Below are positions 1 to 24,072 of a stretch of DNA of 37,700 bases, one piece after another. The stretch's first letter is position 1. Every line of letters begins with the position of its first letter. The notes beneath the pieces are model-generated. The model had not been told where the DNA came from. It did no database searches and saw only the letters and a list, made by a program, of their open reading frames with translations. The stretch is from a virus (lineage: Duplodnaviria; Heunggongvirae; Uroviricota; Caudoviricetes), in IMG/VR virus record IMGVR_UViG_2541047736_000004, positions 1 to 37,700 of that record; one strand, written 5' to 3'. Position numbers and translations under genes: made by a program.

Positions 1-1248
1 ATGGCACTGAATATTCCATTCAGAAATGCGTACTATCGTTTTGCATCCAGTTACTCATTTCTCTTTTTTATTTCCTGGTCGCTGTGGTGGTCGTTATACG
101 CTATTTGGCTGAAAGGACATCTAGGGTTGACAGGGACGGAATTAGGTACACTTTATTCGGTCAACCAGTTTACCAGCATTCTATTTATGATGTTCTACGG
201 CATCGTTCAGGATAAACTCGGTCTGAAGAAACCGCTCATCTGGTGTATGAGTTTCATCCTGGTCTTGACCGGACCGTTTATGATTTACGTTTATGAACCG
301 TTACTGCAAAGCAATTTTTCTGTAGGTCTAATTCTGGGGGCGCTCTTTTTTGGCCTGGGGTATCTGGCGGGATGCGGTTTGCTTGACAGCTTCACCGAAA
401 AAATGGCGCGAAATTTTCATTTCGAATATGGAACAGCGCGCGCCTGGGGATCTTTTGGCTATGCTATTGGCGCGTTCTTTGCCGGCATATTTTTTAGTAT
501 CAGTCCCCATATCAACTTCTGGTTGGTCTCGCTATTTGGCGCTGTATTTATGATGATCAACATGTGTTTTAAAGATAAGGATCACCAGTGCGTAGCGGCG
601 GATGCGGGAGGGGTAAAAAAAGAGGATTTTATCGCAGTTTTCAAGGATCGAAACTTCTGGGTTTTCGTCATATTTATTGTGGGGACGTGGTCTTTCTATA
701 ACATTTTTGATCAACAACTTTTTCCTGTCTTTTATGCAGGTTTATTCGAATCACACGATGTAGGAACGCGCCTGTATGGTTATCTCAACTCATTCCAGGT
801 GGTACTCGAAGCGCTATGCATGGCGATTATTCCTTTCTTTGTGAATCGGGTAGGGCCAAAAAATGCATTACTTATCGGTGTTGTGATTATGGCGTTGCGT
901 ATCCTTTCCTGCGCGCTGTTCGTTAACCCCTGGATTATTTCATTAGTGAAGCTGTTACATGCTATTGAGGTTCCACTTTGTGTCATATCCGTCTTCAAAT
1001 ACAGCGTGGCAAATTTTGATAAGCGCCTGTCGTCGACGATCTTTCTGATTGGTTTTCAAATTGCCAGTTCGCTTGGGATTGTGCTGCTTTCAACGCCGAC
1101 TGGGATACTCTTTGACCACGCAGGCTACCAGACAGTTTTCTTCGCAATTTCGGGTATTGTCTGCCTGATGTTGCTATTTGGCATTTTCTTCTTGAGTAAA
1201 AAACGCGAGCAAATAGTTATGGAAACGCCTGTACCTTCAGCAATATAG
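1..1248 (+). CDS. cscB: Sucrose:H+ symporter, LacY-family MFS permease (415 aa)
   Basis: Full-length ORF with 12-TM MFS profile; sequence recognised from memory as E. coli CscB (N-terminus MALNIPFRNAYYRFASSYSF). Host gene flanking the prophage. Confidence 0.85.
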   Translation: MALNIPFRNAYYRFASSYSFLFFISWSLWWSLYAIWLKGHLGLTGTELGTLYSVNQFTSILFMMFYGIVQDKLGLKKPLIWCMSFILVLTGPFMIYVYEPLLQSNFSVGLILGALFFGLGYLAGCGLLDSFTEKMARNFHFEYGTARAWGSFGYAIGAFFAGIFFSISPHINFWLVSLFGAVFMMINMCFKDKDHQCVAADAGGVKKEDFIAVFKDRNFWVFVIFIVGTWSFYNIFDQQLFPVFYAGLFESHDVGTRLYGYLNSFQVVLEALCMAIIPFFVNRVGPKNALLIGVVIMALRILSCALFVNPWIISLVKLLHAIEVPLCVISVFKYSVANFDKRLSSTIFLIGFQIASSLGIVLLSTPTGILFDHAGYQTVFFAISGIVCLMLLFGIFFLSKKREQIVMETPVPSAI

Positions 1249-1690
1249 ACGTAAACTTTTTCCGGTTGTTGTCGATAGCTCTATATCCCTCAACCGGAAA
1301 ATAATAATAGTAAAATGCTTAGCCCTGCTAATAATCGCCTAATCCAAACGCCTCATTCATGTTCTGGTACAGTCGCTCAAATGTACTTCAGATGCGCGGT
1401 TCGCTGATTTCCAGGACATTGTCGTCATTCAGTGACCTGTCCCGTGTATCACGGTCCTGCGAATTCATCAAGGAATGCATTGCGGAGTGAAGTATCGAGT
1501 CACGCCATATTTCGCTATCAGGATTCTGTGTGATGGTTACATCGCCCGGCCCAGGGCTGTTTAGTCATCAGCGCTTTCTGACAGTGCTGAGATTTCAACC
1601 TGTTGCAGTAAAAATGAGTAGATATAAGGCAAGTGTGCTGCCAAACCCATCTTTTACGGGGTGAAGGTAGATTTCGTTTGAAGGGTATCT

Positions 1691-1705
1691 GGTGTCCCCT
1701 GCAGA
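1691..1705 (-). other. tRNA 3'-end fragment (candidate att core), identical to last 15 nt of tRNA-Arg(CCU) argW as recalled
   Basis: Plus strand reads TGGTGTCCCCTGCAG, the reverse complement of CTGCAGGGGACACCA (acceptor 3' strand ending ACCA); sequence beyond does not fold as a tRNA, so only the terminal core is present. Confidence 0.45.
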
Positions 1706-1777
1706 CATCTACTTGAAGCAGCAGGGGATTGATTGGAATGGTGTTTTTTAGATGTGAGAAATATTTTACCCGCTATT

Positions 1778-1978
1778 TTACCCATTGGCGCGGCTTAAGA
1801 GCTTATTTTTGAATTCACAATGGTCACGATATAACCATCTTGCTCGACCGTGGATAACTTTGGCTTTTGGCAGGTCGCCGGACTTAATCCGGTCATAGAT
1901 GAAGGTTTTACCAAAGCCAGTATCAGCCATGATGAATTTCAAATCAACCAGTGAATCAGGCTGTAGTTCGTGTTGCAT
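1778..1978 (-). CDS. AlpA-family phage transcriptional regulator / excisionase-like HTH protein (66 aa)
   Basis: Small ORF with the AlpA/Xis-like pattern (FIMADTGFGKTFIYDRIKSGDLPKAKVIHGRARWLYRDHCEF); sits at the prophage end where xis/int are expected. Confidence 0.7.
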   Translation of the reverse strand: MQHELQPDSLVDLKFIMADTGFGKTFIYDRIKSGDLPKAKVIHGRARWLYRDHCEFKNKLLSRANG

Positions 1979-1997
1979 GAGTGCTATCTCCGAATAG

Positions 1998-2013
1998 GGA
2001 ATCGAACCTGCAA
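1998..2013 (-). other. tRNA T-arm fragment (16 nt identical to the variable/T-arm segment of the same tRNA-Arg-like gene)
   Basis: Plus strand GGAATCGAACCTGCAA is the reverse complement of TTGCAGGTTCGATTCC; no pairing partner for a T-stem follows, so it is a fragment. Confidence 0.4.
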
Positions 2014-2018
2014 ATCAG

Positions 2019-2041
2019 GCAATAAAAAACCGCCATCAGGC
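2019..2041 (-). terminator. Intrinsic terminator between the 266-aa gene and the AlpA-like gene
   Basis: Minus-strand hairpin CCGCC-tgat-GGCGG followed by TTTTTTATTG. Confidence 0.5.
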
Positions 2042-2260
2042 GGCTTGGTGTTCTTTCAGTTCTTCAATTCGAATATTGGTTACGTCTGCATGTGCTATCT
2101 GCGCCCACAGCATCCAGTGGTCATAGCAGTCGTTGATGTTCTCTGCTTCGATAACTCTGTTGAATGGTTCTCCATTCCATTCACCTGTTACTCGGAAGTG
2201 CATTTATCATCTCCATAAAACAAAACTCGCCGTAGCGAGTTCAGATAAAAGAAATCCGCA

Positions 2261-3061
2261 TTAAGCGGCGTCGGTGAATTCAAATAAAAAACCGGCTTGC
2301 GCCGGCTCTCTCATCTTTCTGTCTACCCATGCTGATATCGATGGCGGGTGCACCTTTTCAATAGCAGCGCGAAGTACAGCTGTGCGTGCCAGTTTGTCGG
2401 TAATCTCAGGAAATCGCTTCTCTGTCTTCGGTACGTTAACAGCAACATTAGTAGAATCCGCACTGGCGAACGGATACATACCAAGAACTCTCACGTCGAG
2501 CATTCGAAGACCATGAATTTTCACTTTCAAATTACGATTGATATAAAGCTCAGTGAAAACTTCATCCATTCTCTGTTCCCACCATTTAGAGCGTATGTGC
2601 CTGTGTGGTCCGCAGCATCCAATCGCCACCCATTCAAATTTGCTAGAAAGGCGTAAAAGACGTTCAATTGATTCGTCGGTATGCCAGACCGGAACCGCTT
2701 TTGATTTTAGCCAATCAGGAACCAACTCAATCTGCTCGTCGTTTTCTGCCTCTGTCCCTTCGATAACGTCAGGTATAAGAAACCATTCAATTCTGCTGAA
2801 CCACTTCCCAACAAAGTCGTAGAATTTTGCTCGTCTCTTACTCCAGTCTACCGGAGTGCCTTTCTTTAATGCTTTCATCCAGTCGCTAAAAGCGCCGTTA
2901 TCAAGGCGTATATCACAAGGGAACATGGCAATCTTTTTCATCTGCTCTGGTCTGGCAAATGAAACAAAAGCCCCACCATCACGGTAAAGGGCTTTAATCA
3001 GCATATCTGTAGGGGCATGCTCATCCCCCCATATTGGGCTGCCGTGAAAGTGGATGGTCAT
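2261..3061 (-). CDS. Hypothetical protein (266 aa); weak resemblance to tRNA-guanine transglycosylase (TGT/DpdA-like) catalytic motif
   Basis: Long ORF with AT-rich upstream region; contains LDNGAF resembling the TGT catalytic motif TDSGGFQ, plus a second Asp-containing segment (ADSTNV). Assignment is motif-level only. Confidence 0.3.
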   Translation of the reverse strand: MTIHFHGSPIWGDEHAPTDMLIKALYRDGGAFVSFARPEQMKKIAMFPCDIRLDNGAFSDWMKALKKGTPVDWSKRRAKFYDFVGKWFSRIEWFLIPDVIEGTEAENDEQIELVPDWLKSKAVPVWHTDESIERLLRLSSKFEWVAIGCCGPHRHIRSKWWEQRMDEVFTELYINRNLKVKIHGLRMLDVRVLGMYPFASADSTNVAVNVPKTEKRFPEITDKLARTAVLRAAIEKVHPPSISAWVDRKMREPAQAGFLFEFTDAA

Positions 3062-3225
3062 ATTATCCCCATATAAAAGAAATCCCCGCGAGTGCGAGGA
3101 TTGTTATTCATTGCCGATATTTACATTTATTTCGAATATCTTTACTGGGTAATCGCCAAAGTCATATGTTTTTTATTCTGTTTTATAAGCACTACTAAGT
3201 ACTGCTTATTACAAATAAGAAAAGG

Positions 3226-3257
3226 CTGAAAAAATATTTAAGGCCACAACTGTGGCC
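3226..3257 (-). terminator. Intrinsic terminator of the LprI-like gene
   Basis: Minus-strand hairpin GGCCAC-agtt-GTGGCC followed by TTAAATATTTTTTCAG, immediately after the stop at 3268. Confidence 0.6.
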
Positions 3258-3267
3258 CTAAATTTAC

Positions 3268-3966
3268 TTACGGCACTGCGTTAATCAGATTACAAATACC
3301 TCTTTTGGCAGGGTCTGAATTCAACTTCTGGAAATTGGCGTTCAACATAGCAGTGTGTAAGTGATTCTCAACCTCAAAGAATAGGTCGATTTTGCCCTCT
3401 TTGGCTGCATGTTTCTTCCAAACATTCACTTGGTCATCAGCAATACGACTGGCGCAAGTGAACAAGAACGAACTGCCTCTAGGAATGGATGTCGTGCTGT
3501 AATACTCACCATCTACTTCTACATATTTAGCTCGGAATGACTCTAAGGTTAGCTTATTGCCGTTCTTGACCGACTTAGCTTCTGCCTTACTTGTTTCTTC
3601 CTGCTCTTTAGAATGTTTCTGCGCCGACGTGGGTATGTCATTGGCCGCTGTTACGCTGACTGAACTCCCCAAACCTTTGAGGCCATTAATTTGGATAAGA
3701 TAAGCCAGCTCCAGAGCCTTATTATCAGTGAGTTTTCCACGCATATTTACCCACTGACGTTGAACCATTTTTAGGGTGTCTGCGTTCTCTGGGTTTCCTT
3801 TGAGGGCACTAGAATAGGCAGAGCTAAGCTGTTCGTCTAATTTTGACAGACGTTCGTTATCGCAGATTTTATGTTCGATTGCTGTCGAAGCCTTTTGGCA
3901 GTCAAAGCTGGCTGCAAATGCACCCGGCGATGCCACTAACAATGATGCCAGTAGGATATTTTTCAT
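3268..3966 (-). CDS. Secreted DUF1311 / lysozyme-inhibitor LprI-like protein (232 aa from MKNILL start)
   Basis: Signal peptide MKNILLASLLVASPGAFA followed by FDCQKA...ICDN...LDEQL, typical of the LprI N-terminal domain; GGAG RBS before the internal ATG at 3966; own terminator and AT-rich upstream region. Confidence 0.6.
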   Translation of the reverse strand: MKNILLASLLVASPGAFAASFDCQKASTAIEHKICDNERLSKLDEQLSSAYSSALKGNPENADTLKMVQRQWVNMRGKLTDNKALELAYLIQINGLKGLGSSVSVTAANDIPTSAQKHSKEQEETSKAEAKSVKNGNKLTLESFRAKYVEVDGEYYSTTSIPRGSSFLFTCASRIADDQVNVWKKHAAKEGKIDLFFEVENHLHTAMLNANFQKLNSDPAKRGICNLINAVP

Positions 3967-4096
3967 ATTCACTCCATAAATACAAAAGCGCATTACTATA
4001 GCACTTAACCGATCGCTTATCTCGCCCGTTCGTCATTCTTATCTAACCAGAACATGCGACTGCCACAGCACATGTCGAGGATTGCTGCATGTCCAG

Positions 4097-4645
4097 TCAC
4101 TGGTTGCCTCCTTTGCGAAGCTGGGCGGCTAACTCATCACATATGTGCGTCAAAGAGCAAAGTTTGATTGATGGATGTTCGCGCATCATCTCCACCCCCT
4201 GCGCCCGTACTTCAGCCAGGAAAGCATCGGTGGCTGGCATATTTCCTGTTGCCTTCATGGCCTCCAAAATAACCAGAACACCATCTCTCCCAATCTCCTC
4301 GCAGATAACCTCGGTGCTGTCGCCAACAACATCGCAGAATTCCTGAACTGCTTTACGAGCCAGCTCATTCTCCGCCGCCAGCGCCGAAAACTTCTCGTGT
4401 GCCAACTTAACAGCTGCATCAGCCTGCTTAATTGACTCAGTCGCTTTCTGGTGGTCTTCGGCCAGCCCTGCTAAATCAGCCTCCAGTTCGGCTAGGCGTT
4501 CATTTAATGCATCTCGTTCATCCAGTAGAGCCAGCACAACCTGAGGTGTGACTTTCATACGAAATGCCAGCAATTTTTGAGGTGTTGCTACTGTTTCAAT
4601 TGCTACTGCCGCCTCACGCAGTGCCTGAGAGTTAATTTCGCTCAC
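4097..4645 (-). CDS. Ead/Ea22-like coiled-coil phage protein (182 aa)
   Basis: N-terminus MSEINSQALREAA... and coiled-coil composition resemble the Ea22-like family of lambdoid early-left regions; start overlaps the TraR-like stop (ATGA). Confidence 0.55.
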   Translation of the reverse strand: MSEINSQALREAAVAIETVATPQKLLAFRMKVTPQVVLALLDERDALNERLAELEADLAGLAEDHQKATESIKQADAAVKLAHEKFSALAAENELARKAVQEFCDVVGDSTEVICEEIGRDGVLVILEAMKATGNMPATDAFLAEVRAQGVEMMREHPSIKLCSLTHICDELAAQLRKGGNQ

Positions 4646-4863
4646 TTCGAACCTCTCTGTTTACTGATAAGTTCCAGATCCTCCTGGCAACTTGCACAAG
4701 TCCGACAACCCTGAACGGCCAGGCGTCTTCGTTCATCTAGCGGATCGCCACACTCACAACAATGAGTGGCAGATATAGCCTGGTGGTTCAGGCGGCGCAT
4801 TTTTATTGCTGTGTTGCGCTGTAATTCTTCAATTTCTGATGCTGAATCAATGATGTCTGCCAT
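4642..4863 (-). CDS. TraR/DksA-family C4 zinc-finger protein (73 aa)
   Basis: Two Cys pairs (CCEC ... CRTCASC) at the C-terminus; size and position typical of phage TraR-like proteins. Confidence 0.7.
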   Translation of the reverse strand: MADIIDSASEIEELQRNTAIKMRRLNHQAISATHCCECGDPLDERRRLAVQGCRTCASCQEDLELISKQRGSK

Positions 4864-4911
4864 CTTTCATTAATCCCTGAATTGTTGGTTAATACGCTTG
4901 AGGGTGAATGC

Positions 4912-4939
4912 GAATAAGAAAAAAGGAGCCTGTAGCTCC
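4912..4939 (-). terminator. Intrinsic terminator downstream of the DGQHR gene
   Basis: Minus-strand hairpin GGAGC-tacag-GCTCC followed by TTTTTTCTTATTCG. Confidence 0.55.
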
Positions 4940-5016
4940 ATGATGATTTTGTTTTTCATGCTCACCGTTCCTTAAAGACGCCGTACAGCATGCTGATATG
5001 AGACAATGTTGATTCA

Positions 5017-6081
5017 TTAAGTTGTTTCCAGACTTCCTTTGGTAAAAGCTTGTATCAGTCTGTTTGCTGCTGCTTTCTGCGCTGCCACATTGGCAATAAC
5101 CGATAGTTTTTCCTGGCTGGCTTTCGTGCAGATCCCCGCCCAGTTATCCATCAGAAAAAAATCCTCTCTTTCTGCAGAGCTGGTAGTTGCACAGAGTTTT
5201 TCGATCATAGAAGTTATTTCTGCGATGGAATGATTAACCATCATCTGTTGAACCGCAAAACCGAAAGCGTTAATCATTACTCCATGGAACTGAATATAAT
5301 CGCGCTTGTACGTAGCGTGGTGTACACCATGTCGGATTGAGTCAATCTGAGTTAGTGTAATCCATGCCTCCCAGACAGATTCTATATATCCCATTTCAAG
5401 TTGTTGATTGCCGTTCCTAGCAAACTTTGACGTTGCATCAGTGAGTGCCTTGAAACTCACCCACATATTACTTTTTAATGGCACTACGTTGTGTTCAAAA
5501 TCGGTTATATCGGCAAATACAGTATGTTGGGTCAGGAAGGATATCATTCCCTGAGCAATATCATCCCGGCCGTTATACGCCATATTGATGGTCGCTGATG
5601 GCTTAGAAACGTTGTTATTTATGTCCGAAAAGAACTGCTGCCGGGTTTTTAGCGGCAGATTCATTGTAAGCATCATGGGAACCATGAGCGTTGATGGGGA
5701 ACTTCGGCAAAATATCTCAATGCCAGCTGCACGATGTTGGCCATCAAAAAGTTTTATTTCGGCGTCGAGGGGAATTCTGGCTATACCAACATTTGTGTTG
5801 CCAAACGGTACAAATTCTATATTCGAATCACAGTTACCTACGAGAGGGGGAATGATAAAAGGCTCATTTCTTGAGTCTGCGTTAGTGAGATAATTTAAAA
5901 ATTTTCGTACTCGATTTGGATTAATTTCTCGCTGAGAGCGTTCCAGTGTATGGCCGTAATTATCTGAAGCGAGGAAACGAGCCAGCGATCTTCCTGGTAT
6001 GGTAAGGAAGAGTGTAACAGTACCACCCTGTACACCTTGCGATGCCGGAAATTCGAATGAATGATTACCAACCTGACTCAT
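5017..6081 (-). CDS. DGQHR-domain protein (DndB/DpdB-like, 354 aa)
   Basis: Exact DGQHR motif in KLFDGQHRAAGIEIF; size fits DndB-like proteins; start codon overlaps the stop of the upstream small ORF. Confidence 0.7.
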   Translation of the reverse strand: MSQVGNHSFEFPASQGVQGGTVTLFLTIPGRSLARFLASDNYGHTLERSQREINPNRVRKFLNYLTNADSRNEPFIIPPLVGNCDSNIEFVPFGNTNVGIARIPLDAEIKLFDGQHRAAGIEIFCRSSPSTLMVPMMLTMNLPLKTRQQFFSDINNNVSKPSATINMAYNGRDDIAQGMISFLTQHTVFADITDFEHNVVPLKSNMWVSFKALTDATSKFARNGNQQLEMGYIESVWEAWITLTQIDSIRHGVHHATYKRDYIQFHGVMINAFGFAVQQMMVNHSIAEITSMIEKLCATTSSAEREDFFLMDNWAGICTKASQEKLSVIANVAAQKAAANRLIQAFTKGSLETT

Positions 6082-6236
6082 ATATCCTCCTGTTTATTAT
6101 TTATCTTCTCAGCCAGCCGCTGTGCTTTCAGTGGATTTCTGATAACAGAAAGGCCGGGAAATACCCAGCCTCGCTTTGTAATGGAGTAGACGAAAGTGAT
6201 CGCGCCTACCCGGATATTATCGTGAGGATGCGTCAT
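6078..6236 (-). CDS. Small lambda orf60a-like protein (52 aa), translationally coupled to exo and the DGQHR gene
   Basis: ORF not in the supplied track (under 60 aa); translated by hand as [52 protein letters not shown]; ATG overlaps the exo stop (ATGA) and its stop overlaps the DGQHR start. Confidence 0.45.
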
Positions 6237-6913
6237 CGCCATTGCTCCCCAAATACAAAACCAATTTCAGCCAGTGCCTCGTCCATTTTTTCGATGAACT
6301 CCGGCACCATCTCGTCAAAACTCGCCATGTACTTTTCATCCCGCTCAACCACGACATAATGCAGTCCTTCACGCTTCATACGCGGGTCATAGTTGGCAAA
6401 GTACCAGGCATCTTTTCGTGTCACCCACATGCTGTACTGCACCTGGGCCATGTAAGCCGACTTTATGGCCTCGAAACCACCGAGCCGGAACTTCATGAAA
6501 TCCCGGGAGGTAAACGGGCATTTCAGCTCAAGGCCATTGCCGTTACTGCATAAACCATCGGGAGAGCAGGCGGTGCGCATACTTTCGTCGCGATAGATGA
6601 TCGGGGATTCAGTAACATTCACGCCGGAAGTGAATTCAAACAGGGTTCTGGCGTCGTTCTCGTACTGTTTTCCCCAGGCCAGCGCCTTAGCATTAACTTC
6701 CGGAGCCACACCGGTGCAAACCTCAGCCAGCAGGGTGTGGAAGTAGGACATTTTCATGTCAGGCCACTTCTTTCCTGAGCGGGGCTTTGCTATCACGTTG
6801 TGAACTTCTGAAGCGGTGATGACGCCGAGCCGTAATTTGTGCCATGCATCATCCCCCTGTTCGACAGCTCTCACGTCGATCCCGGTACGCTGCAGGATAA
6901 TGTCCGGTGTCAT
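6233..6913 (-). CDS. exo: Lambda exonuclease (Red-alpha), 226 aa
   Basis: Near-identical to lambda Exo as recalled; overlaps bet stop. Confidence 0.95.
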
Positions 6914-7695
6914 GCTGCCACCTTCTGCTCAGTGGCTTTCTGTTTCAGGAATCCAAGAGCTTTCACTGCTTCGGCCTGTGTCAGTTCTGACGATGCGCGA
7001 ATGTCGCGGCGAAATATCTGGGAACAGAGCGGCAATAAGTCGTCATCCCATGTTTTATCCAGGGCGATCAGCAGAGTGTTAATCTCCTGCATGGTTTCAT
7101 CGTTAACCGGAGTGATGTCGCGTTCCGGCTGACGTTCTGCAGTGTATGCAGTATTTTCGACAATGCGCTCGGCTTCATCCTTGTCATAGATACCAGCAAA
7201 TCCGAAGGCCAGACGGGCACACTGAATCATGGCTTTATGCCGTAACATCCGTTTGGGATGCGACTGCCACGGCCCCGTGATTTCTCTGCCTTCGCGGGTT
7301 TTGAATGGTTCGCGGCGGCATTCATCCATCCACTCGGTGACGCAGATGGGATGATTGCGGTCCTTGCGGTAAATCCGGCATGTACAGGATTCATTGTCCT
7401 GCTCAAAGTCCATACCATCAAACTGCTGGTTTTCATTGATGATGCGGGACCAGCCATCAACGCCCACCACCGGAACAATGCCGTTCTGCTTATCAGGGAA
7501 GGCGTAAATTTCTTTCGTCCACGGATTAAGGCCGTACTGGTTGGCGACGATCAACAATGCGATGAACTGCGCATCGCTGGCATCACCTTTAAATGCCGTC
7601 TGGCGAAGAGTGGTGATCAGTTCCTGTGGGTCGACAGAATCCATGCCGACACGTTCAGCCAGCTTCCCAGCCAGCGTTGCGAGTGCTGTACTCAT
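6910..7695 (-). CDS. bet: Lambda Bet (Red-beta) single-strand annealing protein, 261 aa
   Basis: Near-identical to lambda Bet as recalled. Confidence 0.95.
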
Positions 7696-7700
7696 CCGTT

Positions 7701-7997
7701 TTATACCTCTGAATCAATATCAAACTGGTGGTGAGCAATGATTTCAACCATGTACCGGATGTGTTCTGCCATGCGCTCCTGAAACTCAACATCGTCATCA
7801 AACGCACGGGTAATGGCTTTTTTGCTGGCCCCGTGGCGTTGCAAATGATCGATGCATAGCGATTCAAACAGGTGCTGGGGCAGGCCTTTTTCCATGTCGT
7901 CTGCCAGTTCTGCCTCTTTCTCTTCACGGGCGATCTGCTGGTAGTGACGTGCCCAGCTCTGAGCCTCAAGACGATCCTGAATGTAATAAGCGTTCAT
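7701..7997 (-). CDS. gam: Gam (RecBCD inhibitor), 98-aa short form
   Basis: Matches lambda GamS ([21 protein letters not shown]...). Confidence 0.9.
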
Positions 7998-8072
7998 GGC
8001 TGAACTCCTGAAAATGGCTGTGAAAATATCGCCCGCGAAATGCCAGGCTGATTAGGAAAACAGGAAAGGGGA

Positions 8073-8483
8073 TTAGTGATTCAGGCCGTTACCGCGTCCG
8101 TCGAGAAAAACTTCCACGAGCAAATCACGGGTATAAGTGCGCTCGATGCCGCGATGCAGATATAGCCGTCCGCGTAAATTAGCTGATGCAGTCCAGGTAC
8201 CATCTTTGTGTTTGACCAGCATTCCTGGCATGACCGCACCTCGATTAACGGTCTGCGTTCCGTAATGTTGATGAACCATAAAAACTCCTGCCCGTAAGCT
8301 GGGCTGCTGAACATATAGAGACTTCTGCGCGTATTCAGGCGGTGGATGGCCGCCGGTTGTCATAACTAAGTCGCCTCGTTGAAGCGACTGAGGTATGAAG
8401 TGTTGAGTTGATTTCAGCTGGTCACACCGACGTTCACGCGTCCGCTTCACCCCTCGCACTCCCCGGAGCCTGCTGAAATTCAA
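8073..8483 (-). CDS. Candidate N-like antiterminator, first gene of the pL operon (non-ATG start; alternative GTG at 8450)
   Basis: First ORF downstream of the pL-like promoter; Arg-rich N-terminal segment KRTRERR resembles the lambda N ARM (TRRRERR); otherwise no recognisable similarity. Confidence 0.3.
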
Positions 8484-8544
8484 GCTGCGGATCTAAGCGG
8501 TCATCGCAACGGTGAATCAGGTGATTGCCGTATCGTTGTGTTGT

Positions 8545-8625
8545 TGCGATGAATTCATTTAAAACTATAGTTGTTTTATCGTCAACAACAAAAGTTGTTT
8601 TATTGGTTGTTTTAGATATAACTGG
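8545..8625 (-). promoter_or_regulatory. pL-like promoter with OL operators
   Basis: Minus-strand GTTGTTGACGATAAAACAACTATAGTTTTAA is paralogous to the pR region; repeated GGTTGTT/AACAACC half-sites. Confidence 0.55.
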
Positions 8626-8717
8626 TTGTATTTAAGATGGATTTATTTTGTGACTTGCATCGCATAGCGATAACTGAAGCGAGGTCGTGGTGGTTTTTTG
8701 AACGGTTTGTGTGATGA

Positions 8718-8748
8718 GGGGAGGCAAAAGAAAACCCGGCACTGGGGC
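8718..8748 (-). terminator. Left half of the immunity-operon intrinsic terminator, split by IS4
   Basis: With IS4 and one duplication copy removed, the minus strand reads AAACCCGGC-cccagt-GCCGGGTTT followed by TCTTTTGCC; IS4 sits in the loop. Confidence 0.55.
8737..8748. repeat. IS4 target-site duplication, left copy (CGGCACTGGGGC)
   Basis: 12-bp direct repeat directly flanking both IS4 ends. Confidence 0.85.
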
Positions 8749-10174
8749 TAATGCCAGTCAGTTAAGCAACTGACTGGCTCTTTTTCGGGGCTGTGGGGTA
8801 TTTCCAGGGCCTCTCCTTTACCACTCTCGGGAAGGCCCTTTCCCTTCTTGTCGGTAATTTCACAAGTTGTCCCATACTTGCAAGATCGCGCATCAGCTCC
8901 GGTATACGTCCCGGTGAAGCGCCCTGCAATGTCATCAGCATTCTCATCACCATTCCGCATGATTCTGAGAAACTCAGTTGATTCGGCCAGTAACCTTTCA
9001 GATGTTCCGCCATTTTAATCATCTGATATCTCACCAGATTATAAGCCAGTAAGACACCCCACAGCTCTTGCTCCACAAGCTCCGGCTTTTTACTTCTCAG
9101 CGTCAGCCTGCTCCGTTGCATCGTCTGTTTTATCTCCCTGTATCCCAGTTCGATTTCCCAGCGATGACTGTACAGATCCCCCATTTCTCCTCCGGGGAAG
9201 CGCATGGCGTCCGTCATCGACGTCAGCAGATGGCAGACTTTTCCTTTGCGCGTCACGGTCAGCAGGCGGGCAGTCACTTCATTTCCCAGTCCCGGCCACT
9301 TTTTTCGTGCCTGCGGGCTGGTTTTCAGCTTCACCAGATGATCGCCTTTACCCAGTTTTCTGATCTCTTCATATTGCGCTCCCTTTCTGAGAGGTATCAT
9401 CCAGTGGCGGTGTTCTCCCGCCAGGCTCCAGGCATTTAACAGTCCCAGTGAGTAATAACCTTTATCCATTAACGTCAGAGTGTTATCGCCGGTTTGTTCT
9501 ATAAGTTGCTCAGCAAGCTCATTTTCGCTGTTCTTCATCGTGCCGAAGGCTGCAGCCGTCAGCAGATGGCTGGTCAGTTCCATCTGGCAGACCATTTTGA
9601 CCTGCGGGTAGAGCGCCGGGTTCCCGGCATGTGTCTGGCGGGGGAAGGCTGCATCGTTCTCTGGTGTATCCGGTGTGCGCCAGAACACACCATCGATGGC
9701 CAGCAGGGTCAGGCCGCACCAGTGCGGATGCGGCGTGGCGTTATGCCAGAGCTGCGCTGTTTTCGTGAACACGCGGCGGACAGCCTCACTTCCCAGGCGC
9801 TGGCGGGCCTGAATAACGGCACTGGGGGCAACGAAGGGGCGATTGCCCGGCAGCATGATGTCCAGGCGATTCACAATCTGGTGAAGAGGTTCTTTACGCT
9901 CAAGCGCCATGCCAACAATACACCAGACCATCATTTCGAGGGGAAGACGGCGCTTGCGTAGCGTTACAGTACCTGATTCGGCAAGGCAACGAGAGATGAG
10001 TTCGGGGTCGAGGTAATCCCCCAGAGAAGTCAGTGGGTTACGCAGAGAATCGTAACGGGATACCAGATCAAGAGCCTGTCCAATGTGCATAAAAAAATCC
10101 GGAAACAAGTGAGCGTTTCCGGATTCTTACACAGCCACTGGATCGGTCAACTGATCCTTAACTGATCGGCATTA
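8749..10174 (-). mobile_element. Insertion sequence IS4, complete (1426 bp)
   Basis: Terminal inverted repeats TAATGCCAGTCAG... and ...CTGATCGGCATTA; encodes the IS4 transposase; flanked by a 12-bp duplication. Confidence 0.95.
8762..10090 (-). CDS. insG: IS4 transposase (442 aa from MHIGQALDL start)
   Basis: Recognised as the IS4 transposase (DDE family); the supplied ORF carries a 6-codon upstream extension. Confidence 0.9.
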
Positions 10175-10186
10175 CGGCACTGGGGC
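10175..10186. repeat. IS4 target-site duplication, right copy (CGGCACTGGGGC)
   Basis: Identical to 8737-8748. Confidence 0.85.
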
Positions 10187-10193
10187 CGGGTTT
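10175..10193 (-). terminator. Right half of the IS4-split terminator
   Basis: Carries the GCCGGGTTT stem strand that pairs with AAACCCGGC at 8732-8740. Confidence 0.5.
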
Positions 10194-10268
10194 AGATGGA
10201 TAAGAAAGGGTAATAGGGAATGAAAAATCGCTTTGCGTAATGCAAGGTGGCGAGCAGTTTCTTAAGCA

Positions 10269-10709
10269 CTAAAGAAAAAAGTACATTGATAGCTTATAAA
10301 GACCTGTTCCTGCAGCGATGATTGCTGGAACACCAAGCAATACCGCAAGCTTTGCGTCTGAAATCTTTCTATCGACAGCATCGATGGAGGGTTTTTTGGC
10401 TAGTGAATCTTTTATTGAATCGAGTCGCTCCAGAACAGCGATCATGTTTCTGTCGATAGATTTGACATCTGTCTTAAGCTCATCAACGTCACGTCGGATA
10501 TAGGACACATCAGACTCAAGCTTTGCAACTTTCGATTCAAGCACATTATTACTCCCAGAGCCACCGCTACCACTTGATTGTAGCATAGGTACATTACCGC
10601 CAGACATACCAGCTGATTGAGAAAATGCTGCAGTGTGCAAAGATGATGATCTTGCCGCTTGTTCAAGCTTTTCAGTTAGGTTTGGAGCTTCGTAATAACC
10701 GTGTTTCAT
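10269..10709 (-). CDS. Hypothetical tail-anchored membrane protein with coiled coil (146 aa), rex-position cassette gene 2
   Basis: Gly/Ser-rich linker, heptad-like coiled-coil segment, single C-terminal TM helix (LAVLLGVPAIIAAGTGLYKLSMYFFL); follows the 89-aa ORF after a 8-bp gap, co-oriented with cI. Confidence 0.55.
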   Translation of the reverse strand: MKHGYYEAPNLTEKLEQAARSSSLHTAAFSQSAGMSGGNVPMLQSSGSGGSGSNNVLESKVAKLESDVSYIRRDVDELKTDVKSIDRNMIAVLERLDSIKDSLAKKPSIDAVDRKISDAKLAVLLGVPAIIAAGTGLYKLSMYFFL

Positions 10710-10717
10710 TGTTAATA

Positions 10718-10987
10718 TTATGACTTATTGGTTTTAGCTCTATCATGCTGATCGCGAATAAAGTCAGCGAGTTTAAGCATTAAATCTTCCGTCATGCGAA
10801 TTGTTGCAATGTTGTACTTTACGTTTTCAGTGTCATTACTACCATCAGCGCCCCATTCTGTAACATGCTGAAAGAAAGATATGGAGCCTAAGCGATCGTC
10901 ATCTTCCCCAAAAGATGAATATCCAAATGCATCAGCATATGCATCTACACAGTTATTTGATTTTTTTATAAGTTTTTTATCACTCAT
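10718..10987 (-). CDS. Hypothetical small acidic protein (89 aa), rex-position cassette gene 1
   Basis: ORF immediately downstream of cI on the same strand; no recognised domain. Confidence 0.5.
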   Translation of the reverse strand: MSDKKLIKKSNNCVDAYADAFGYSSFGEDDDRLGSISFFQHVTEWGADGSNDTENVKYNIATIRMTEDLMLKLADFIRDQHDRAKTNKS

Positions 10988-11066
10988 TTTTGCCTTTCCC
11001 GTAATGTTATTTTTATAAAGAATTCTTTCAGCGCATTACCCAAAAGCCTCATCAGCACGCAGCTGA

Positions 11067-11756
11067 TTATCCGTGTTTCCTATACGTCTGCGGCATACTG
11101 CCAATAACCTTCCCGAAAATGAACACCCGGTTCATCTCGTCTTTCTCGATCGGGTCCCACGGTGAGTAGCTCTTGTTATCAGAGATAACCAGTAGCTTAT
11201 CTTTCATCATTTGCAGGCGCTTTACATGGGCTGTGTCGTCGTACAGAAACGCATAGATACCATCACCGTCGAAAGATTTAACCGTGATATCAACGAACAG
11301 CAGATCACCTGGTTCGATCGTTCCTGACATGCTGTCACCACGCACGTTAATGATGCGGATATTTTCCGCCTTCCTGCCATCGAACATGTGACGAGCATCG
11401 TCAAACGAGTACTCAACCGAGCGTAGAACTTCTACAAACTCACGGTTGATTACACCCGGCCCGGCACTGACTTCTATATCAAGAACGTCAATTTTGAAGT
11501 ATTTGGAATGGCTGACAGTTGATTGTATTGGTTGCACTGTACTGTCTGACATATTTCCAACGCCAGAAGATAACCATTCTGCGCGCACACCCAAAGCGTT
11601 CGCGATCTCCACGATTTTAGTTGTTTGGTTAGCTTTCCCTGTTTCGATTTTCTGAATAGCAGCCTGGCTAACCCCGACCAAATCCCCAAGCGCCTTTTGT
11701 GTAAGGCCTCGCGCTAATCTGGCTTCTTTAAGTCTTTCTGAGAGTGTTGTTTTCAT
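11067..11756 (-). CDS. CI-type prophage repressor, HTH-XRE plus S24 LexA-like peptidase (229 aa from MKTTLSERL)
   Basis: N-terminal HTH (LTQKALGDLVGVSQAAIQKIE), Ala-Gly cleavage site (SAGPG), Ser and Lys catalytic motifs (GDSMSGT, HVKRL); the internal ATG at 11756 is preferred because the upstream extension would cover the OR palindrome. Confidence 0.85.
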   Translation of the reverse strand: MKTTLSERLKEARLARGLTQKALGDLVGVSQAAIQKIETGKANQTTKIVEIANALGVRAEWLSSGVGNMSDSTVQPIQSTVSHSKYFKIDVLDIEVSAGPGVINREFVEVLRSVEYSFDDARHMFDGRKAENIRIINVRGDSMSGTIEPGDLLFVDITVKSFDGDGIYAFLYDDTAHVKRLQMMKDKLLVISDNKSYSPWDPIEKDEMNRVFIFGKVIGSMPQTYRKHG

Positions 11757-11860
11757 AGACCAAATGTACAACCAAGGTTTTATTTCATCAAACGAAAATG
11801 GTTGTTGACTAAAAACAACCATAGTTTTAATCTTGATTCGGATTAACCACGGAGGTTGTT
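11757..11860. promoter_or_regulatory. OR operator / pR-pRM divergent promoter region
   Basis: Palindrome TGGTTGTTGACTAAAAACAACCA at 11799-11821 with embedded -35 TTGACT; candidate -10 in TAGTTTTAAT upstream of cro. Confidence 0.6.
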
Positions 11861-12091
11861 ATGAACCCAGCAATCAAAACAGCGATCAATATCGTTGGTT
11901 CACAAAAGAAACTAGGCGATGCCTGCGAAGTTTCACAGCAGGCCGTCTATAAGTGGCTTCACAACAAAGCAAAGGTATCCCCTGAACATGTCGGCAGCAT
12001 TGTTACGGCTACTGGTGGAGTTGTGAAGGCATACCAGATTCGCCCGGATCTTCCGAAGTTGTTTCCACACACCGAAAAGAACGCAGCTTAA
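11861..12091 (+). CDS. Cro-like / YdaS-family HTH regulator (76 aa)
   Basis: Small HTH protein divergent from cI; resembles Rac-prophage YdaS as recalled. Confidence 0.7.
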   Translation: MNPAIKTAINIVGSQKKLGDACEVSQQAVYKWLHNKAKVSPEHVGSIVTATGGVVKAYQIRPDLPKLFPHTEKNAA

Positions 12092-12160
12092 ATTTCCATT
12101 TCACGCTCTTTAACAATAAGCAATCAACTTAACAGTCAATTCAAACTAAAGGAGTCAATT

Positions 12161-12700
12161 ATGCAACCACTTACATACCAACAGACTAGCGGATTTATTC
12201 CGACTGCGGTGATAAATCGTTCTCAAACAAAACAAGCTCCAGGCCACGAAAAAATCCGTGATGCCGTCCGCGCCTGGTCGGCTGTAGATAATCAGGATGT
12301 CGTTGCCGCACTCATTGTGAATGAGTATCGGGAGCAGGGCGACGGCACCATCGATTTCCCTGATGATGTCAGCCGTGCACGCCAGAAGCTGTTCCGCTTC
12401 CTCGATAACAAATTCGATTCTGAAAAATACCGAAATAACGTGCGTGAACTGACCCCGGCAATTCTGGCGGTACTACCGCTGGAATATCGCGGTTACCTGG
12501 TTGAGCAGGATAGCTTCATGACTCGGTTGGCTGAAATGGAAAAGGAACTCAGTGAGGCAAAACAGGCTGTCATTCTCAACGCACCACGCCACCAGAAACT
12601 GAAGGAAATTAGTGAAGGTATTGTGTCGATGTTTCGTGTGGACCCAGATCTGGCTGGTCCATTGATGGCGATGGTTACTACCATGCTGGGGGCGATATGA
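12161..12700 (+). CDS. YdaT-like protein in the cII position (179 aa)
   Basis: LTPAILAVLPLEYRGYL matches the Rac YdaT segment IPAILAILPRELR as recalled. Confidence 0.55.
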   Translation: MQPLTYQQTSGFIPTAVINRSQTKQAPGHEKIRDAVRAWSAVDNQDVVAALIVNEYREQGDGTIDFPDDVSRARQKLFRFLDNKFDSEKYRNNVRELTPAILAVLPLEYRGYLVEQDSFMTRLAEMEKELSEAKQAVILNAPRHQKLKEISEGIVSMFRVDPDLAGPLMAMVTTMLGAI

Positions 12701-16203: not shown

Positions 16204-16315
16204 CTATCAGATGTTATCTTCAGTTGTTTAGGGTTGATTTAAAAGCGAATCTTAATATTTTCAAGTTTTGAATTTAGAAATAAAAAAGCCATAATATTGT
16301 CATCGGAGCCTAAAA

Positions 16316-16420
16316 AACTCCGGTGACTTCTGCGCTAAACGGGGACGTTTATGCGCACACACAATCCAAACTCTCATCTCCATTCACAGATGCAGAAATG
16401 CACCTACGATTTTTTACATT
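16316..16420. repeat. Direct repeat copy A (~105 bp, ~95% identical to 18250-18354)
   Basis: AACTCCGGTGACTTCTGCGCTAAACGGGGACGTTTATGCGCACA... occurs twice, flanking the Bro-N / 169-aa module. Confidence 0.85.
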
Positions 16421-18188: not shown

Positions 18189-18249
18189 TTTTCAGCACAT
18201 TTGATTTCCAATAATCAACCAGCCATAATCATGCCATTGGAGCTTGAAC

Positions 18250-18354
18250 AACTCCGGTGACTTCTGCGCTAAACGGGGACGTTTATGCGCACATACAATC
18301 CAAACTCTCTTCTCCCTTCACAGATGCAGAGATGCACCTGCGATTTTTTGCATC
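18250..18354. repeat. Direct repeat copy B (partner of 16316-16420), directly upstream of ninB
   Basis: See copy A. Confidence 0.85.
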
Positions 18355-20444: not shown

Positions 20445-21527
20445 TTAGAACTGGTAAACCATACCTACAGCAACGATATCATCGGTAGCAACGCCAGATG
20501 CTTTCGTGAAATCGCTCTTATCAATCAGGTTGATTTTGTAATCAACAAAAGTGGACATATTTTTGTTGAAGTAATAGGTTGCACCTACATCAATATATTC
20601 AACCAGGTCCTGATCACCCCACGCACCCAAGTCTTTTCCTTTAGATTGCAGGTAAGCAACGGACGGACGCAGACCGAAGTCGAACTGATATTGTGCAACT
20701 ACTTCGAAGTTTTGTGCTTTGTTGGCAATATGGTTATTACCAAAAACAGTCATGTTCTGGGTTTCAGAATAGGTGGTAGCCAGATAGATGTTGTTCGCAT
20801 CATATTTCAGACCAGCTGCCCATACTTCAGCATTTTGACCAGATGCATTCAGGCTGTTGTTACCGTAGATAACCTGATTATTAGTGCGGTCAGATTTAGC
20901 ATAGGTTGCACCTACACCGAATCCTTCATACTCATAAGTAGTGGAGAAACCGAAACCATCACCATTAGCTTCAGTTACGTCAGTGCGGTCATTTTTACCC
21001 TGATACTGAGCAGCAAAGTTCAGACCATCAACCAGACCAAAGAAGTCGTTGTTACGATAAGTTGCAACACCAGTGGTGCGACCAGTCATGAACACATCTG
21101 TTTGGGTCCAGGTATCGCCACCGAATTCTGGCAGAACGTCAGTCCACGCACCGATGTCGTATGCTACACCGTAGTTACGGCCGTAATCGATTGAGCCGTA
21201 GTCACCGAATTTCAGGCCTGCAAATGCAAGACGGGTTTTGTCTTTGGAGGAACCTTGAGATTCAGCGCGGTTGCCTTTGAATTCATATTCCCACTGACCG
21301 AAACCAGTCAGTTGATCGTTGATTTGGGTTTCACCTTTGAAGCCAAGACGGGCATAAGTAGTATCACCATCATCTGCATCATTAGAGGAGAAGTAGTGCT
21401 TAGCATTAACTTTCCCGTACAGATCCAGCTTGTTACTGTCTTTATTATAAATTTCAGCTGCCTGAGCAGACATCGCCATCAGTACTGATGCAGCTACAGC
21501 AGAAATTGCCACTGTTAATTTTTTCAT
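20445..21527 (-). CDS. nmpC: Outer-membrane porin of the OmpC/OmpF family (360 aa), prophage moron
   Basis: Signal peptide plus typical porin beta-barrel sequence ending in F; recognised as NmpC of DLP12-type prophages; antisense to the late operon. Confidence 0.9.
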
Positions 21528-23271: not shown

Positions 23272-23302
23272 AGCTGCCCATATCGATGGGCAACTCATGC
23301 AA

Positions 23303-23596
23303 TTATTGTGAGCAATACACCCGCGCTTCCAGCGGAGTATAAATGCCTAAAGTAATAAAACCGAGCAATCCATTTACGAATGTTTGCTGGGTTTCTGTTT
23401 TAACAACATTTTCTGCGCCGCCACAAATTTTGGCTGCATCAACAGTTTTCTCCTGTCCAATTCCCGAAACGAAGAAATGATGGGTGATGGTTTCCTTTGG
23501 TGTTACTGCTGTCGGTTTGTTTCCAACAGTAAACGTCTGTTGAGCACATCCTGTAATAAGCATTGCCAGAGCGGCAGAAAACAACATTTTTTTCAT
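23303..23596 (-). CDS. bor: Bor lipoprotein (97 aa from MKKMLF)
   Basis: Near-identical to lambda Bor as recalled, with lipobox ITGC. Confidence 0.9.
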   Translation of the reverse strand: MKKMLFSAALAMLITGCAQQTFTVGNKPTAVTPKETITHHFFVSGIGQEKTVDAAKICGGAENVVKTETQQTFVNGLLGFITLGIYTPLEARVYCSQ

Positions 23597-24072
23597 CTTA
23601 TTATCCTGCATTGTTAAAAACGGCAGAATCCTATGTGACAACAATTAAACGATAGTTAAATGGATTGATGAAAAATAAAACTATATAGGTGGATGCTCAG
23701 CCTATTGGAGGAGGGGGGCACTCAGAATCCTGTGGAATGAAATAAACCGCTCTATCTGTCCATTACCCTTTTAGCTGCGCTGTATCGTCGCCGTATTCCC
23801 GCATTAGCCATCACCGTAGCCCGACGGGGAATTCCTTCTGCGTGAGTGTGCGGGAATAATCAAAAACGATGCACACCGGGTTTTTACCGCGTTTATGGTT
23901 CGCGGGGGTGTCCCTCATGCTCGCCAGTCCTGTGCGGGGGTGGAAGAAACAGGACGTGTATTCAGGTCTGTGTGACTGTGGTCGCAAGACTTTTGTCGTT
24001 CAGCTATTAAATCCCATTACGAAGTAGACCAGAACGGCCAACGGGTCCTTTCCGGCGATCCGACAGGTTACG

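Follow-up and report, generated by a model that had tools for sequence, protein, structure and literature searches.

The window analysed here is a stretch of 37,700 nucleotides of a caudoviricete virus (IMG/VR record IMGVR_UViG_2541047736_000004, positions 1 to 37,700), and within it a copy of the insertion sequence IS4 lies between the repressor operon of a prophage and its promoter pL. This locus raises the questions of what was interrupted by IS4 and at what cost to the immunity region, and of how the element came to be inserted at this very point. In our opinion, the best explanation as a whole, and a highly probable one, is a recent transposition of IS4 into the predicted terminator of the leftward repressor operon, with termination probably relocated into the element.

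The genes and regulatory sequences around the site are as follows.

Positions 8073 to 8363, minus strand: kil homologue (phrog_294), first recognisable gene downstream of pL
Positions 8560 to 8640, minus strand: pL/OL region, in which the minus-strand sequence TTGTTGTTGACGATAAAACAACTATAGTTTTAA is almost the same as pR/OR and is followed by more GTTGTT half-sites
Positions 10269 to 10709, minus strand: third and last gene of the repressor operon, encoding a protein of 146 aa whose C-terminus is hydrophobic (phrog_3556, a PHROG family of unknown function)
Positions 10718 to 10987, minus strand: second gene of the repressor operon, encoding a protein of 89 aa (phrog_4231, a PHROG family of unknown function)
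Positions 11067 to 11756, minus strand: CI-type repressor with HTH_3 and Peptidase_S24 domains, 229 aa according to the annotation in relatives
Positions 11799 to 11835, plus strand: pR/OR, palindrome GGTTGTTGACTAAAAACAACC overlapping TTGACT-17-TAATCT, upstream of a cro-like gene at 11861

The minus strand at about 8595 to 8560 was assigned to pL/OL because its sequence is almost the same as that of pR/OR at 11799 to 11835. Thus, the placement of pL/OL beyond IS4 in the sequence-only reading, made without database searches, was correct, and the region lies to the left of the insertion site. The same reading had called the two accessory genes rex-like, which holds for their position and not for homology, since both proteins fall into PHROG families without known function and no match to RexA or RexB was found in Pfam or PADLOC. 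The N-like gene that it had placed after pL has to be abandoned. The first pL gene is a Kil homologue, and no N-family antiterminator was matched in Pfam or PHROGs. In the open reading frame at 8073 to 8483, residues 60–136 match Kil (phrog_294, 1.4e-38), and the homologue is annotated in relatives as a cell-division inhibitor. Phage IdasGreatGrand has an annotated Kil of 96 aa, from which the start at 8363 was inferred, and RefSeq relatives give only 8073 to 8279 (68 aa). An Rfam scan of positions 7900 to 12300 returned nothing relevant and no nut- or put-like hit, and the fold of the pL leader (8360 to 8555, minus strand) is unremarkable (z = -2.0).

The window shares with the lambda immunity region (pRM-cI-rexA-rexB-terminator, OL/pL) the order of an S24/HTH repressor, two co-oriented accessory genes, a predicted terminator and OL/pL. 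As in lambda, pL and pR have a common operator-promoter sequence, pR/OR is divergent from the repressor and pL/OL is distant. The differences are that no similarity to RexA or RexB could be detected in the accessory proteins, that the positions of cro and cII are occupied by YdaS- and YdaT-family proteins, and that kil, without a detected N homologue, is the first gene of pL.

The inserted element has the following parts.

Positions 8749 to 10174, transposase gene on the minus strand: IS4, labelled "IS4-like element IS4 family transposase" in matching genomes
Positions 8749 to 8766: terminal inverted repeat of IS4 at the end distal to the transposase start, 16/18 against the other end
Positions 10157 to 10174: terminal inverted repeat at the end proximal to the transposase start, 16/18 against the other end
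Positions 8762 to 10090, minus strand: transposase coding sequence, intact, 442 aa from ATG, or 448 aa from TTG at 10108

The element is exactly 1426 bp long and is bounded by imperfect 18-bp repeats, TAATGCCAGTCAGTTAAG and CTTAACTGATCGGCATTA. Its transposase is encoded by a single open reading frame that begins with MHIGQ, has no internal stop and contains Nterm_IS4 (PF13006, 3.1e-33) and DDE_Tnp_1 (PF01609, 3e-31) domains. The Y(2)R(3)E(6)K motif, as defined in PMC2266710, was read straight from the translation. IS4 duplicates about one helical turn of its target (11–13 bp); the duplication is 12 bp here, and other copies have 11–14 bp. Compared with the annotated IS4 of E. coli strain 3090, the copy differs in 5 of 1426 nucleotides (99.65% identity) and 2 amino acids, and 3,472 collection blocks are indexed as containing exactly its 448-aa product; an exact-protein look-up led only to other IS4 sites. 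With E. coli IS4, the type element of the IS4 family (IS4 subgroup) with transposase InsG, the window copy shares the repeats beginning with TAATGCC, the length of 1426 bp, the 442-aa DDE/YREK transposase with both domains and a duplication within the range of other copies. It differs in location only. The element is IS4 itself, seemingly intact and looking competent for transposition, and its coordinates, end repeats and uninterrupted reading frame agree with the intact IS4 described before.

The sequences split by IS4 and the duplication that flanks it are listed below.

Positions 8726 to 8734, minus strand: U-tract of the interrupted terminator, AAAAGAAAA on the plus strand and UUUUCUUUU in minus-strand RNA, conserved in related phages
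Positions 8732 to 8740, minus strand: downstream arm of the terminator hairpin as read on this strand, AAACCCGGC on the plus strand
Positions 8737 to 8748: left copy of the target-site duplication, CGGCACTGGGGC
Positions 10175 to 10186: right copy of the target-site duplication, CGGCACTGGGGC
Positions 10185 to 10193, minus strand: upstream arm of the terminator hairpin as read on this strand, GCCGGGTTT on the plus strand

When IS4 and one duplicate are deleted, the plus strand reads AAACCCGGC-ACTGGG-GCCGGGTTT. The minus strand then folds into a 9-bp stem (AAACCCGGC/GCCGGGUUU) with six G-C pairs and a 6-nt loop, followed by UUUUCUUUU. The predicted energy is -15.1 kcal/mol (z = -3.6), and none of 200 shuffled sequences folded as well. 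The hairpin starts 76 nt past the stop codon (10269 to 10271) of the 146-aa gene, on the same strand, and is situated about 140 nt before pL. Both proposals of the sequence-only reading, that removal of IS4 restores a hairpin with a T-run on the minus strand and that the element sits in the terminator loop, are borne out by these data: the restored sequence occurs naturally, and what was hit is a terminator-like hairpin, in its loop and inner stem, just past the last gene of the operon.

Phage IdasGreatGrand, phage PhiR68_2 and strain LWY24 (L085, L086 and L087) all retain the stem and its U-tract on the minus strand. IdasGreatGrand has a different two-gene cassette, and PhiR68_2 has both a different cassette and different operators, with the hairpin retained in both. 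The loop is variable among relatives (ACTGGG, ACGGTG or ACGGG). The stem is identical, with no compensatory changes and hence no support from covariation. The hairpin is best read as a predicted terminator that closes the accessory cassette, a variable part of the repressor operon, and by analogy as the positional counterpart of the terminator of the lambda immunity region. In lambdoid phages, a cassette of accessory genes as a rule ends in a terminator.

The stem arms are now 1.4 kb apart, so that the original hairpin cannot form, and the predicted terminator is lost for transcripts of the repressor operon. At the right junction, only a 4-bp mini-hairpin without a U-tract is left. These transcripts would now enter IS4 at its transposase-proximal end, where the following features are found together with a counterpart at the other end.

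Positions 10093 to 10128, minus strand: internal hairpin of IS4 with a 15-bp stem and a 6-nt loop, followed by U7 and ending right before the transposase AUG, -22.8 kcal/mol, with an inferred function
Positions 10123 to 10150, minus strand: promoter-like TTGACC-16-AAGAAT with TG, a candidate transposase promoter by consensus match only
Positions 8753 to 8778, plus strand: end hairpin of IS4 with an 11-bp stem followed by TCTTTTT, terminator-like for transcripts entering from the left, -18.7 kcal/mol

The internal hairpin lies 47–82 nt inside the end entered by the repressor-operon transcripts. It is absent from the list of the terminator scan, and its terminator-like character was deduced from folds. 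With its 15-bp stem and U7 it would probably end incoming transcripts and also mask the start of the transposase. In that case, pL and kil would remain largely insulated from read-through of the repressor operon, and the effect of the insertion would be nearly neutral. Since such a strong terminator-like hairpin is located just inside the entered end of IS4, termination was probably relocated by about 90 nt and replaced, not abolished. Some new leftward read-through into pL and kil may occur, though it would be weak, and the effects on termination and read-through suggested by the sequence-only reading are probably overstated.

The hairpin at 8753 to 8778 and its T-run face inward, mirroring the hairpin of the other end. 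A hybrid terminator at the left junction, composed of CTGGCATTAGCCCCAGTGCCGG and GTTTTCTTTT and flagged by the scan, was also considered and was rejected, as it is outcompeted in folds by this stronger end hairpin of IS4.

A real regulatory effect of the insertion should be weighed against this near neutrality. With the terminator lost, with transcripts leaving IS4 or with an additional 1.4 kb between OL and OR, the immunity or inducibility of the prophage could change, as could the expression of kil, gam, bet and exo. The splitting of the original hairpin and the poor structure of the right junction are consistent with this reading, as is the orientation of the transposase gene, which points at pL with only a weak 5-bp residual (hybrid) hairpin and the old U-tract between its stop and this promoter. 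The spacing between OL and OR has nearly doubled, from about 1.8 kb to about 3.2 kb. On the other hand, IS4 brings a stronger hairpin with U7 (-22.8 against -15.1 kcal/mol) no more than 82 nt from the point of entry, and no prophage gene and neither of the operator regions is damaged or differs from its counterpart in IS4-free relatives. In many genomes, IS4 is found in terminators after essential or highly expressed genes (eno, glmS, typA and adhE), so that insertions of this kind are commonly tolerated. The wider spacing should weaken any looping by this repressor, itself hypothetical, only modestly; lambda CI can form loops over 2.4 kb, and over greater distances in engineered constructs. 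A regulatory effect of this kind is thus considered unlikely.

Another explanation denies the hairpin its role as a terminator. According to it, the structure is chiefly a recombination linker at the boundary of mosaic modules, or a plain hot spot of IS4, and its resemblance to a terminator is incidental. It is true that the homology of phages with differing post-repressor cassettes ends exactly at the end of the stem, and that a block of about 110 nt from OL to the hairpin is common even to PhiR68_2 with its different operators. However, the variation among relatives is in the loop and spares the stem, and on the minus-strand side the U-tract is conserved, whereas the plus-strand side past the stem diverges. 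The hairpin also stands shortly after the last co-oriented stop codon and just before a promoter that needs to be silent in the lysogen, and a terminator is usual at this place in lambdoid phages. The roles of linker and terminator are not mutually exclusive, and we regard it as quite unlikely that the linker role is the principal one. A predicted terminator, therefore, remains the preferred identity of the target.

The way in which IS4 arrived there can be traced by means of the duplication and of natural empty sites. The 12-bp duplication is perfect and does not extend past 12 bp, exactly as it had been described before, and the chance that a given 12-mer recurs at the exact opposite end is about 6e-8. 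Eleven nucleotides of the duplication recur within IS4 at 9818 to 9828. A mechanistic link was considered for this match and discarded as probable chance, other duplications matching IS4 by 6–10 nt in unrelated places.

An empty site of 424 nt was rebuilt by joining 8549–8748 to 10187–10410 and was searched for in complete E. coli genomes. It was found with 100% identity over its whole length in 3 genomes and with at least 99% identity in 22, and a single match spanning at least 80% of the query was obtained in 186 genomes. With a junction query consisting of 189 nt of flank and 192 nt of IS4, IS4 at the site of the window was found in none of the 5,426 complete E. coli genomes searched. When the viral and genome collections were scanned for IS4 ends, no flank matched that of the window. 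The insertion into this prophage appears to be private to the strain of the window.

The same prophage is carried by E. coli 2024CK-00188, of which 36.3 kb were aligned to the window. The alignment is free of gaps across all 37.7 kb apart from 1438 bp, which correspond to IS4 and one duplicate. It forms two blocks, 1–8748 and 10175–37700, that overlap by exactly the 12-bp duplication, and only two mismatches were found between 4918 and 15710. The insertion is accordingly clean, recent and simple. The left part of the window has matches with 100% identity in strains 2024CK-00188, 673, EC19 and TK3888. The comparison with related prophages lacking IS4, which the sequence-only reading had proposed, has therefore left the boundaries of IS4 and the duplication in place, and the natural empty sites carry the restored hairpin; its conclusion that the element was transposed and not recombined into the site is likewise upheld by the perfect duplication and the near-isogenic prophage. 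Arrival by homologous recombination or a larger IS4-mediated rearrangement is extremely improbable, for although recombination between IS4 copies does happen (two copies with swapped flanks in GCA_052122925.1, L095 and L096), the natural empty site, with both flanks contiguous in IS4-free genomes, and the gap-free alignment on either side refute a rearrangement, and the perfect duplication also speaks against it.

The choice of the site can be understood from other copies of IS4. Scans for IS4 ends in the viral and genome collections yielded 67 unique right flanks and 23 left flanks, and these approximately 70 other sites show a sharp consensus of an A-run, a palindrome and a T-run. The strongest positions are given below.

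Right flank, position 1: C in 56 of 67
Right flank, position 4: C in 53 of 67
Right flank, positions 9 and 10: G in 38 and 37 of 67
Right flank, positions 17 to 20: T in 45–55 of 67
Left flank, position -4: G in 19 of 23
Left flank, positions -17 to -20: A in 14–18 of 23

The pattern may be written as a short palindrome C-N-S-C...G-S-N-G, of which 11–14 bp are duplicated, with an A-run about 17–20 nt away on one side and a T-run about 17–20 nt away on the other. The site in the window agrees with the strongest consensus positions. A weight matrix built without the window placed position 8737 first in the window freed of IS4 (ranks 1, 2 and 5 of 144,768 position-length combinations, z = 4.8). 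The matrix thus singles out the insertion point in a 36-kb prophage, and IS4 sites appear to be largely predictable from sequence.

A strict terminator test was passed by 9 of 20 rebuilt IS4 targets, compared with 2.7% of random positions. Because only 45% of the targets pass it, the preference of IS4 is for a sequence pattern and not for terminators as such. Chromosomal copies were found directly after typA, adhE, glmS, eno, mukB and glgP. Ten further copies with gene calls are located directly after adhE, mukB, glmS, eno, glgP or aroA, or between phage tail genes, with restored hairpins of up to -23 kcal/mol. At several sites, IS4 has one orientation in some genomes and the opposite one in others (for example, L009/L015 and L035/L055).

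The best BLAST matches to the junction query ran 27 nt past the end of IS4 and belong to an IS4 that many E. coli genomes have between typA and yihL. At that site, AAAAAAAAACCTGCC-ATCGCT-GGCAGGTTTTTT is split by the element, with a 12-bp duplication GCCATCGCTGGC centred on the loop, and the geometry is the same as in the window. Unlike the seemingly private prophage site, this one is a widespread chromosomal site behind a housekeeping gene. Mayaux and co-workers reportedly described, in 1984, IS4 in the pheST attenuator and a consensus AAA-N20-TTT, which the target in the window fits. The combination of A-run, palindrome and T-run is the standard target of IS4, a circumstance that the sequence-only reading had overlooked, and the insertion is an ordinary case of a known element at a known kind of target.

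Taken together, the preferred explanation has the following course. A canonical IS4 was inserted lately, by ordinary cut-and-paste DDE transposition, into the predicted terminator of the operon of the repressor, the 89-aa protein and the 146-aa protein. The site was chosen for its fit to the target preference of IS4, and intrinsic terminators share the architecture of the preferred target. Staggered cuts around the loop and inner stem led to duplication of both.

The internal hairpin of IS4 resembles a known way of protecting insertion sequences. Davis, Simons and Kleckner are said to have found, in 1985, that fold-back inhibition shields IS10/Tn10 from outside transcription. The -10 hexamer of the candidate IS4 promoter lies in the 5' arm of the internal hairpin, so that IS4's own transcript would lack this arm. 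IS4 thus shares with IS10 a transposase-proximal hairpin with its 5' arm upstream of the predicted own start, which would be formed only by incoming transcripts. It differs in the U7 that follows and makes the structure resemble a true terminator as well, and protection of IS4 is proposed by analogy.

The importance of the finding beyond annotation is small, as it concerns a textbook IS4 at its preferred type of site. A broader idea, which we offer tentatively and consider doubtful, is that IS4 is a self-insulated terminator-homing element, seeking A-run/palindrome/T-run sites and carrying inward terminator-like hairpins at both ends (10093 to 10128, minus strand, and 8753 to 8778, plus strand) that replace the destroyed terminator in either orientation. 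If this were true, insertions of IS4 would be nearly neutral, and its persistence after essential genes and in a prophage immunity region would be explained. In a weaker variant of this idea, residual read-through of the repressor operon could couple expression of the IS4 transposase to the lysogenic state of this prophage. The window and 2024CK-00188 (also 673, EC19 and TK3888) form a nearly isogenic pair made by nature, in which the terminator of a prophage immunity region either contains IS4 or is free of it, and this pair may be used for asking whether IS4 functionally replaces the terminators that it splits.

The OL operators are separated from the terminator hairpin of the repressor operon by a block of about 110 nt (8638-8748, TTTGTGACTTGCATCGCATAGCGATAACTGAAGCGAGGTCGTGGTGGTTTTTTGAACGG...), which was found to be conserved on comparison with phages IdasGreatGrand and PhiR68_2 and strain LWY24, and which is kept even in PhiR68_2, despite the differing operators and post-repressor cassette of this phage. 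Rfam gave no match for the block, and the only open reading frames lying in it, or mostly in it, are the two short ones listed first below. On the other side of pL, an arginine-rich stretch precedes the Kil homologue in the same frame.

Short coding features around the conserved block
8637-8714, plus strand: ORF of 25 aa
8632-8742, minus strand: ORF of 36 aa
8364-8483, minus strand: region upstream of the Kil homologue with an arginine-rich stretch of 21 residues

The arginine-rich stretch bears a superficial resemblance to an N-type arginine-rich motif. Family searches gave no match for it, a separate ORF of 31 aa is annotated at its place in phage IdasGreatGrand, and the leader fold upstream of the Kil homologue is unremarkable.

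Within IS4 itself, at 9818-9828, 11 nt of the target duplication (CGGCACTGGGG; 8737-8747 and 10175-10185) recur, or 12 nt when the match is extended by the A that comes before it at the right junction. The probability that a random 12-mer would have such a match in IS4 is about 1.4e-3. The match is probably due to chance, because other IS4 duplications match the element over just 6-10 nt and at unrelated positions.

IS4 copies at other loci were also considered. Another copy in a lambda-like regulatory region was observed in IMGVR_UViG_2547132127_000009 (L007, about 5190-6700), flanked by the 13-bp duplication CACCTATGGTGTA in the context ...AAACCACACCTATGGTGTATGCATTTATTTGC; the part of this context just upstream of the element, GCCCTGAAAAAGGGC, we take to be the lambda nutR boxB. 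Two copies in GCA_052122925.1 (CM125673.1), at about 1.88 and 1.90 Mb, are in opposite orientation some 22 kb apart, and their flanking duplications, CGACAATGTGCCG and CACATTACGGCG, are swapped between them, which is consistent with the mukB-aroA segment having been inverted between two IS4 copies. In three pairs of contigs (L009/L015, L035/L055 and L010/L025) the targets are identical and the orientation of IS4 is reversed; they are independent insertions at shared hot spots and agree with a symmetric IS4 target.

The prophage carries several further genes, and in its nin-like region a sequence of about 133 bp is directly repeated with about 90% identity (16287-16419 and 18221-18353), as detected via cross-matches in the BLAST of the window against its near-identical relative, the E. 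coli 2024CK-00188 prophage.

Cargo and other genes of the prophage
5017-6081, minus strand: DGQHR-domain protein of 354 aa (PADLOC DndB match, 4.3e-37)
20445-21527, minus strand: OmpC-type porin gene (Porin_1, 3e-153)
About 23300-23600, adjoining the lysis genes: iss (serum survival) lipoprotein gene, as annotated in 2024CK-00188

The DndB-matching gene stands alone in the early-left operon, with DUF1317/exo on one side and a TraR/DksA-like gene on the other. The porin and iss genes are cargo typical of lysogenic conversion.

At positions 1-2000 the prophage adjoins an oligosaccharide MFS transporter gene, and its first gene is a torI-type excisionase; there is no integrase at this end. The closest relative of the immunity region, in strain TD225-C4, adjoins icd and carries its own integrase and excisionase. 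Since the neighbour is the MFS transporter gene in one case and icd in the other, prophages with different attachment sites share the same immunity module.
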